A DNA stretch of 64,000 nucleotides, from the NCBI RefSeq assembly GCF_041248615.1, contig NZ_CP158426.1; one strand, 5' to 3'. Positions 5,754-6,183 of this stretch are shown here, in pieces. The stretch comes from Escherichia coli (GTDB taxonomy: Bacteria; Pseudomonadota; Gammaproteobacteria; Enterobacterales; Enterobacteriaceae). Position 1 is the stretch's first letter; every line of letters starts with the position of its first letter. A model generated the notes under the pieces. The model searched no databases and had not been told where the DNA came from. It worked only from the letters and a program-made list of their open reading frames with translations. Made by a program: the position numbers and the translations under genes.

Positions 5754-5898
5754 GAGGCCTTTGCTGCGACTGCCATGTTCGGGTCGCAGCATCGCACACT
5801 CTCCAACATGAAATGGCTAAATGGATTATTGTTGCGTAGGAAGGAACAATAATGATAGTGTTCCTGGTGAAGGAACGCTACTGAGAGTAAAGACACTA

Positions 5899-6183
5899 AT
5901 GAAAATGGCCAATCATCCCCGCCCGGGGGACATTATTCAGGAATCACTGGACGAACTTAATGTCAGCCTGCGCGAGTTTGCCAGAGCAATGGAAATTGCG
6001 CCCTCAACGGCAAGCCGATTGCTGACCGGAAAAGCAGCTTTGACACCAGAAATGGCGATTAAACTTTCCGTGGTGATCGGCAGTTCGCCGCAAATGTGGC
6101 TGAATCTGCAAAACGCCTGGAGTCTGGCAGAGGCAGAAAAAACGGTGGATGTGTCGCGATTACGCCGTCTGGTTACGCAATAA
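5899..6183 (+). CDS. yddM: HigA-like XRE-family HTH antitoxin-type regulator
   Basis: 94-aa product [17 protein letters not shown]...; HTH of HigA/VapI type; no partner toxin ORF found upstream. Confidence 0.8.

Follow-up and report, generated by a model that had tools for sequence, protein, structure and literature searches.

The solo antitoxin gene yddM of Escherichia coli as the probable remainder of a higB-higA operon

Among the transcription factors of E. coli K-12, YddM usually appears as "uncharacterised" or "orphan". The same gene lies in the stretch of DNA analysed here (64 kb in length, hereafter the window), where the local gene order is maeA, adhP (ending at position 5753), a spacer of 145 bp (5754-5898), yddM, an IS200 element, and fdnI on the minus strand. 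An earlier note, made from the sequence, had described the product as a HigA-type protein with no recognisable toxin partner, and had offered two explanations: an orphan antitoxin that acts as a transcriptional regulator, or an antitoxin whose cognate toxin was lost. The locus thus raises the question of where a lone antitoxin gene came from, and of what has kept it in place.

The yddM ORF of the window encodes 94 amino acids. This protein matched the HigA model TIGR02607 (antidote_HigA) with an E-value of 4.5e-27 (93.7 bits against a curated cutoff of 47.7) and the helix-turn-helix family HTH_3 (PF01381) with an E-value of 7.6e-10 (39.1 bits against a cutoff of 23); by these matches YddM belongs to the HigA family. 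The RefSeq record, WP_000781370.1, is named HigA family addiction module antitoxin, and RefSeq also names the toxin wherever a toxin gene occurs. K-12, the window, and toxin-bearing strains all encode this same protein. HigA of plasmid Rts1 (PDB 4MCX) was matched at 1.3e-18. Over residues 1-94, YddM is 100% identical to the protein in PDB entries 2ICP and 2ICT ("antitoxin HigA", E. coli CFT073), which is cited as YddM from E. coli CFT073 (PMC3968373), and by this identity YddM has the HigA fold, a dimeric XRE helix-turn-helix. An in-frame ATG upstream, at 5821, would add only 26 residues. The resulting protein of 120 amino acids was rejected because the orthologues, the RefSeq record, and the crystal structure all begin with MKMANHP; in addition, the stretch concerned is promoter or toxin sequence in other alleles.

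Apart from that ATG, the spacer between adhP and yddM contained only an ORF of 25 amino acids (5775-5852) and antisense ORFs. We built a HigB profile HMM from 23 HigB orthologues and ran it on six-frame peptides. It found no match in the spacer, where the scores were all negative or near zero, and none in the whole window, where the best E-value was 0.99. A tblastn search of the window with the toxin as query detected no HigB-like sequence (best E-value 0.11), and an Rfam search of the spacer returned no sRNA match. In the window, yddM neither follows directly nor overlaps a HigB (PF05015) gene, and the 64 kb contain no complete type II HigBA module, that is, one with both toxin and antitoxin genes. 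The earlier note had therefore read the locus correctly in its descriptive parts. The HigA-type helix-turn-helix protein of 94 residues is confirmed by the TIGR02607 and HTH_3 matches; the statement that the 145 bp after adhP lack a HigB/RelE-like ORF agrees with the list of ORFs and with the six-frame HMM and tblastn searches, in which no toxin ORF hidden upstream of yddM came to light; and the IS200 downstream was recovered through its Y1_Tnp and STnc490 matches and by comparison with empty sites. The note had also placed hicAB and ortT in the same window, and all three genes were found there: hicB at 58356-58769 (minus strand, 100% identity), hicA at 58818-58991 (minus strand, 95% identity), and ortT at 50718-50888 (minus strand, 100% identity to the K-12 sequence).

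We compared the locus by megablast across 5,426 complete E. coli genomes, which fell into two layouts. The yddM gene was found in 5,412 of them. In strains 14EC033, FDAARGOS_1304, and CFT073, adhP and yddM are separated by an ORF of 92 amino acids, whose stop codon overlaps the start of yddM in the sequence TGATG. This ORF encodes a HigB-like toxin: it matched PF05015 (1.4e-17) and HigB of Rts1 (PDB 4MCT, 8.4e-32), with which it has the C-terminal residues YEDYH in common. At a coverage of at least 80%, higB was present in 1,329 of the 5,426 genomes, CFT073 included. The toxin-less upstream sequence was present in about 4,080 genomes (about 75%), including the K-12 type. This distribution is in line with a published survey in which K-12 and HS encode the antitoxin alone at this locus, while the pair is recorded as TA20, "ParE-2/HigA-2", in AIEC NRG857c and CFT073 (Bustamante & Vidal 2020, PMC7232551).

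One further assembly, that of E. coli O157:H7 TR01, contained a chimeric spacer (positions 1402-1546 of locus L004), in which 35 nt and 45 nt of the toxin-bearing type surround 29 nt of the K-12 type. It includes the last 45 nt of higB, and the lengths of its segments are exactly those of the K-12 allele; the yddM of TR01 is nucleotide-identical to that of a toxin-bearing strain. No other of the 5,426 genomes had a chromosomal match to only a part of higB. We considered it as an intermediate allele with a 3' remnant of the toxin gene and rejected this, as reference-guided assembly or polishing most likely created the chimera.

The direction of change was inferred from other species. A scan of one genome per species yielded 41 loci with relatives of YddM, 40 of which were informative (a contig of 214 nt was left out). 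A HigB-like ORF was located directly upstream of the antitoxin in 33 of the 40 loci, toxin fragments or frameshifts beside an intact antitoxin were present in four, and three had no toxin upstream. The toxin-bearing loci include those of E. albertii, two other Escherichia lineages, and more than 10 Citrobacter species, and in Citrobacter the higB-antitoxin pair likewise adjoins fdnI. Given this predominance of upstream toxins, the toxin-first operon is older than E. coli, and the layout of K-12 and of the window is derived by loss of the toxin. The comparison with strains in which a toxin precedes homologues of yddM, covering E. coli, E. albertii, Citrobacter, and other Enterobacteriaceae, thus upheld the toxin loss suggested in the earlier note: at the same adhP-fdnI locus, 1,329 genomes retain an intact higB immediately ahead of a gene for the same YddM protein, and the homologues are genuine members of toxin-antitoxin pairs, not ordinary regulators.

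Judged from the sequences of these loci, decay of the toxin with retention of the antitoxin arose independently elsewhere. In Citrobacter sp. FP75, the toxin gene has an internal deletion; in C. portucalensis and in Xenorhabdus lircayensis it is frameshifted; and in X. khoisanae only its C-terminal 29 codons are left. The antitoxin is intact in each case. Loss of the antitoxin first would be lethal, so this order of decay is the expected one.

Between E. albertii (L005) and the window, yddM differs at 11 of 285 nt (3.9%), all of them synonymous, and adhP differs by 12.2%; the HigB protein is 100% identical between E. coli and E. albertii. This similarity suggests that the module is either under unusually strong constraint or has been exchanged between the two species. 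The contig left out of the scan (L035), from the assembly of "Clostridium sp. CMCC3677", matches the start of yddM from E. coli at 100% identity and is probably E. coli contamination of that assembly.

With an intact antitoxin, no adjacent toxin, and a full pair at the orthologous loci of relatives, yddM of the window is an orphan (solo) antitoxin gene. We consider it very probable that it was the antitoxin gene of an ancestral higB-higA operon, that the lineage of the window, like K-12 and about 75% of E. coli, has had the 279-nt higB removed, and that a self-repressing solo HigA is what remains. In the common ancestor of Escherichia and Citrobacter, this operon would have been toxin-first and would have occupied the interval from adhP to fdnI. 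Removal of higB would have left yddM 22 nt behind a conserved promoter/operator core. By analogy, the YddM dimer may still bind the palindromic core over the -10 region and repress its own transcription. HigA of Rts1 does not have the toxin as a co-repressor and by itself represses the hig promoter about 211-fold (PMC12266136); hence, the loss of HigB need not abolish autoregulation. With no toxin to neutralise, YddM would persist as a low-level, self-limiting helix-turn-helix repressor, which may have a few further binding sites and could neutralise incoming HigB.

The elements of the spacer and of the region downstream of yddM are listed in Table 1.

Table 1. Features between adhP and fdnI in the window (positions are those of the window)
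Feature	Position	Strand	Basis
Hairpin after the adhP stop, TGCTGCGAC...GTCGCAGCA	5762..5791	+	Inverted repeat I1; almost invariant among alleles
Diverged upstream segment of the toxin-less allele	5789..5829	+	Alignments; ~51 nt of toxin-bearing E. coli missing
Perfect 9-nt inverted repeats ATTATTGTT / AACAATAAT, separated by 11 nt	5825..5853	.	Inverted repeat I2
Putative 47-nt promoter/operator core, TGTTGCG-N7-GGAACA-N10-TGTTCC-N7-GGAAC	5830..5876	+	Cross-genus conservation; inverted repeats I3, I4
Deletion scar at the former site of the 279-nt higB	5877..5898	+	Allele alignments
yddM, HigA-family antitoxin with XRE helix-turn-helix	5899..6183	+	HTH_3, TIGR02607, identity to 2ICP/2ICT, WP_000781370.1
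IS200, 710 bp, right after or within the yddM stop	6184..6893	-	Y1_Tnp 1.1e-36; STnc490; empty-site comparison
IS200 end hairpin with T-run, now 3' of yddM	6192-6210		
IS200 tnpA	about 6292-6750	-	Y1_Tnp 1.1e-36
STnc490 (IS200 5'UTR RNA)	6760-6883	-	146 bits
Native bidirectional terminator hairpin common to yddM and fdnI	6894..6925	.	Empty-site alleles

The hairpin after adhP forms the left edge of the conserved flank, and toxin-bearing and toxin-less alleles diverge right after it. Within the core, GGAACA (5843-5848) and TGTTCC (5859-5864) form a palindrome around the -10-like sequence ATAATGATAGT, and an extra half-site, GGAAC, is located at 5872-5876. The toxin-less allele has kept this core, whose length and four half-sites do not change between E. 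coli, E. albertii, and more than 10 Citrobacter species; the sequences between the half-sites vary. TGTTGCG is a plausible candidate for the -35 element. A scan of the region for strict consensus sigma-70 promoters found none; the conservation of the core points to its role as a promoter, and the core is also the putative binding region of YddM (HigA).

The scar comprises the 22 nt between the core and the ATG of yddM. At its end, CACTAATG (5891-5898) corresponds to what in toxin-bearing strains is the last toxin codon, the stop codon, and the yddM start that overlaps it (CAC TGA/TAA TG). We tried to explain the scar by a clean deletion between microhomologies (ATGAA/ATGAA or CAC/CAC). Both pairs fit the 22 nt in part, and the 27% divergence between the haplotypes blocks a decision between them. 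The sequence ATGAAATGGCTAAATGG further upstream was considered as a duplicate of the yddM start and dismissed as a chance resemblance, because it aligns with the diverged upstream sequence of other alleles.

Downstream, the alleles of strains E62 and O104:H4 represent the empty site, in which the TAA of yddM is followed directly by the terminator hairpin. The IS200 insertion moved this shared terminator 710 bp away from yddM, and the TAA was regenerated. The same insertion was found in TUM14771 and EC21Z-147. The spacer between yddM and fdnI also varies through copies of a unit of ~180 bp with REP-like palindromes (window 6894-6945; L003 2085-2490; L001 2403-2629): there are no copies in the window (before the IS200 insertion), E62, and O104:H4, one in 14EC033 and 99-3311, and two in K-12.

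What has maintained yddM since the loss of higB can be answered in several ways. YddM may have been recruited as a stand-alone transcription factor, and a regulon beyond its own promoter would then explain its retention. This regulatory role, the other suggestion of the earlier note, is compatible with an origin through toxin loss and has some published support; we regard it as a real possibility, although we do not favour it. ChIP-exo in K-12 confirmed YddM as a DNA-binding protein and provided a binding motif (PMC6237786), and in a CRISPRi/a preprint of 2025 the differentially expressed genes were consistent with putative YddM sites. Published hints also come from the epetraborole hypersusceptibility of a yddM deletion strain (not complemented) and from genetic interactions of yddM with stress regulators. 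The gene is, moreover, nearly universal and under purifying selection, even though the toxin is missing in 75% of the genomes. However, selection is at least as strong in toxin-bearing lineages, and YddM is the same protein with or without the toxin, so that it bears no sign of adaptation to a new role. The same class of study also yields few sites per factor and many intragenic peaks (PMC6237786).

The toxin-less allele is more than the present-day toxin-bearing allele minus higB, as the alignments between the two indicate. In the upstream segment, 72 of 99 alignable columns are identical (about 73%), and an indel of 51 nt separates the alleles, whereas the flanks are 96-97% (adhP) and 97-99% (yddM) identical. 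The core of the toxin-less allele differs from that of the toxin-bearing E. coli allele at 9-10 of 47 positions, and is thus no closer to it than to the Citrobacter alleles, from which it differs at 7-10 of 47. Owing to the divergence of the spacer and the 51-nt indel, the deletion event and its exact junction are not reconstructable. The toxin-less segment is therefore a mosaic, with the adhP hairpin and the start of yddM as the limits of a haplotype that may be old or may have been imported. The toxin-less haplotypes are themselves diverse, with a divergence of up to 11% in the 110 nt upstream of yddM.

Two variants were found among the toxin-less haplotypes. In the first, an 11-bp micro-inversion polymorphism, the sequence GCGTAGGAAGG between the 9-nt inverted repeats is exactly reverse-complemented to CCTTCCTACGC in a common haplotype, that of E62 and O104:H4 2009EL-2071 (about 1,061 genomes at 80-90% identity). 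Linked SNPs show that the inversion belongs to a stable haplotype and does not switch actively. It resembles a template-switch mutation driven by the palindrome, and it preserves the left operator symmetry. In the second (locus L047, ETEC6333), 29 bp between direct repeats GAAGGAAC were lost (window 5838-5866), and with them the GGAACA-N10-TGTTCC palindrome and the -10-like sequence. This sub-allele is present in up to 183 genomes, with an intact yddM ORF and an identical protein. Its existence implies that tight autoregulation is dispensable in at least some lineages.

Confinement of the divergence of about 27% to a spacer between flanks of 96-99% identity is the basis for a reading in which higB was replaced rather than simply deleted. 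An old or imported haplotype that consisted of "promoter plus antitoxin only" would have replaced the higB segment by recombination and risen to about 75% of E. coli; shedding the toxin would have been advantageous, YddM would have been kept as immunity against re-acquired or plasmid-borne HigB or as a recruited repressor, and the operator would have been remodelled by template switching, as reflected in the 11-bp inversion and the extended 9-nt arms. Taken as a whole, we consider this scenario unlikely. When the plasmid collection was searched with the toxin-less upstream region, there were eight matches, all to E. coli records and none showing a plasmid origin. Several of these records are chromosome-sized, and some of the matches cover part of the query at lower identity; the origin of the region from a plasmid was rejected on these grounds.

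YddM could also have been kept as an anti-addiction or immunity factor, which neutralises HigB arriving through plasmids, phages, or recombination and so prevents post-segregational killing. Such a model has been discussed for orphan antitoxins (PMC7354431), and HigB-family toxins were found on 539 plasmids, 99 of them from Escherichia. From its identity to the partner of HigB in CFT073, YddM could be expected to neutralise its cognate HigB, and it should do so if a toxin-bearing allele were imported. The genuine plasmid-borne toxins, however, are at most about 56% identical to chromosomal HigB, and at such divergence toxin-antitoxin pairs are usually specific. The few plasmid matches of at least 90% include a chromosome-sized record (H149, 4.9 Mb). 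As the explanation for the retention of yddM, we find this function quite improbable.

We also assessed whether yddM is a functionless remnant that has not yet decayed. Its toxin partner is gone, the operator region is rearranged (the 11-bp inversion and the 29-bp deletion allele), and in one genome yddM is truncated by a transposon, which is of the Tn3 family. That genome is one of only four, among the 5,412 with the gene, that lack at least 80% of yddM. The segregating sites were counted in a small, non-random sample of nine toxin-less alleles picked for divergence and seven toxin-bearing alleles. The toxin-less alleles had 11 synonymous and three non-synonymous sites, which rejects neutrality (binomial p = 4e-5, with a neutral expectation of 75% non-synonymous), and the toxin-bearing alleles had 32 synonymous and two non-synonymous sites. 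The slightly higher ratio of non-synonymous to synonymous sites in the toxin-less alleles would suit a remnant, but the two groups do not differ significantly in it (Fisher p = 0.14). The gene is under purifying selection. YddM also binds DNA in vivo in K-12, and the diversity of the toxin-less haplotypes, with up to 11% divergence upstream, indicates that the loss is old enough for decay to be visible. A gene simply awaiting decay is therefore a very doubtful description of yddM.

That the toxin persists, whether hidden in the 145-bp spacer as a small or non-canonical ORF or moved to another part of the genome, is scarcely credible, as the HMM and tblastn searches were negative in the spacer and the entire window, the spacer aligns with promoter and not with toxin sequence, the homologues and the crystal structure begin at MKMANHP, and a sensitive blastn search with higB found matches in just 1,354 genomes (in 1,329 with a coverage of 80% or more), which leaves the toxin-less genomes with no copy recognisable at the DNA level.

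The reading of yddM as the antitoxin of a lost higB-higA pair was compared with known systems. The closest is the HigB-HigA pair of CFT073 and AIEC NRG857c (ParE-2/HigA-2, TA20), which occupies the same adhP-fdnI locus and has an identical antitoxin and a homologous core; the window differs from it by the missing 279-nt toxin gene and by an upstream region that is ~73% identical and 51 nt shorter. The founding member of the family is HigB-HigA of plasmid Rts1 (Proteus vulgaris). The E. coli system resembles it in its toxin-first order, in the similarity of the lost toxin to Rts1 HigB (8.4e-32) and of YddM to Rts1 HigA (1.3e-18), and in its palindromic operators over the promoter, which are putative here; in Rts1 the antitoxin alone is a strong repressor. 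In contrast to Rts1, the locus is chromosomal, the toxin is lost, and the operator sequence is different; YddM, with 94 residues against the 104 of Rts1 HigA, lacks the C-terminal tail. K-12 encodes a second solo HigA-like protein, YbaQ (PDB 2EBY), whose toxin, "ParE-1", survives only in some pathogenic strains. DNA binding was confirmed by ChIP-exo for YbaQ as for YddM, but YbaQ is a distant paralogue (5.6e-9) encoded at another locus. The pattern described for orphan antitoxins from degraded type II modules, an intact antitoxin whose toxin was the first to go (PMC7354431), does not differ substantially from what is found here.

The solo yddM antitoxin of K-12 has already been published (PMC7232551), and the locus is an ordinary case and no new kind of system. 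To this the present analysis adds the frequencies of the two layouts in the population, evidence from outgroups on which state is ancestral, the conservation of the operator core, the mosaic structure of the toxin-less haplotype, and a test for selection. YddM is the HigA of a pair that CFT073 and about a quarter of E. coli genomes still carry intact, and the phenotypes of yddM and its ChIP targets are to be interpreted with this toxin-antitoxin origin in mind. The locus provides a clean natural example of one-way toxin-antitoxin decay, in which the toxin is the first part to disappear, with antitoxin and operator retained under selection. On the strength of the identity between the two antitoxins, K-12 should be naturally immune to the HigB of CFT073 through YddM.
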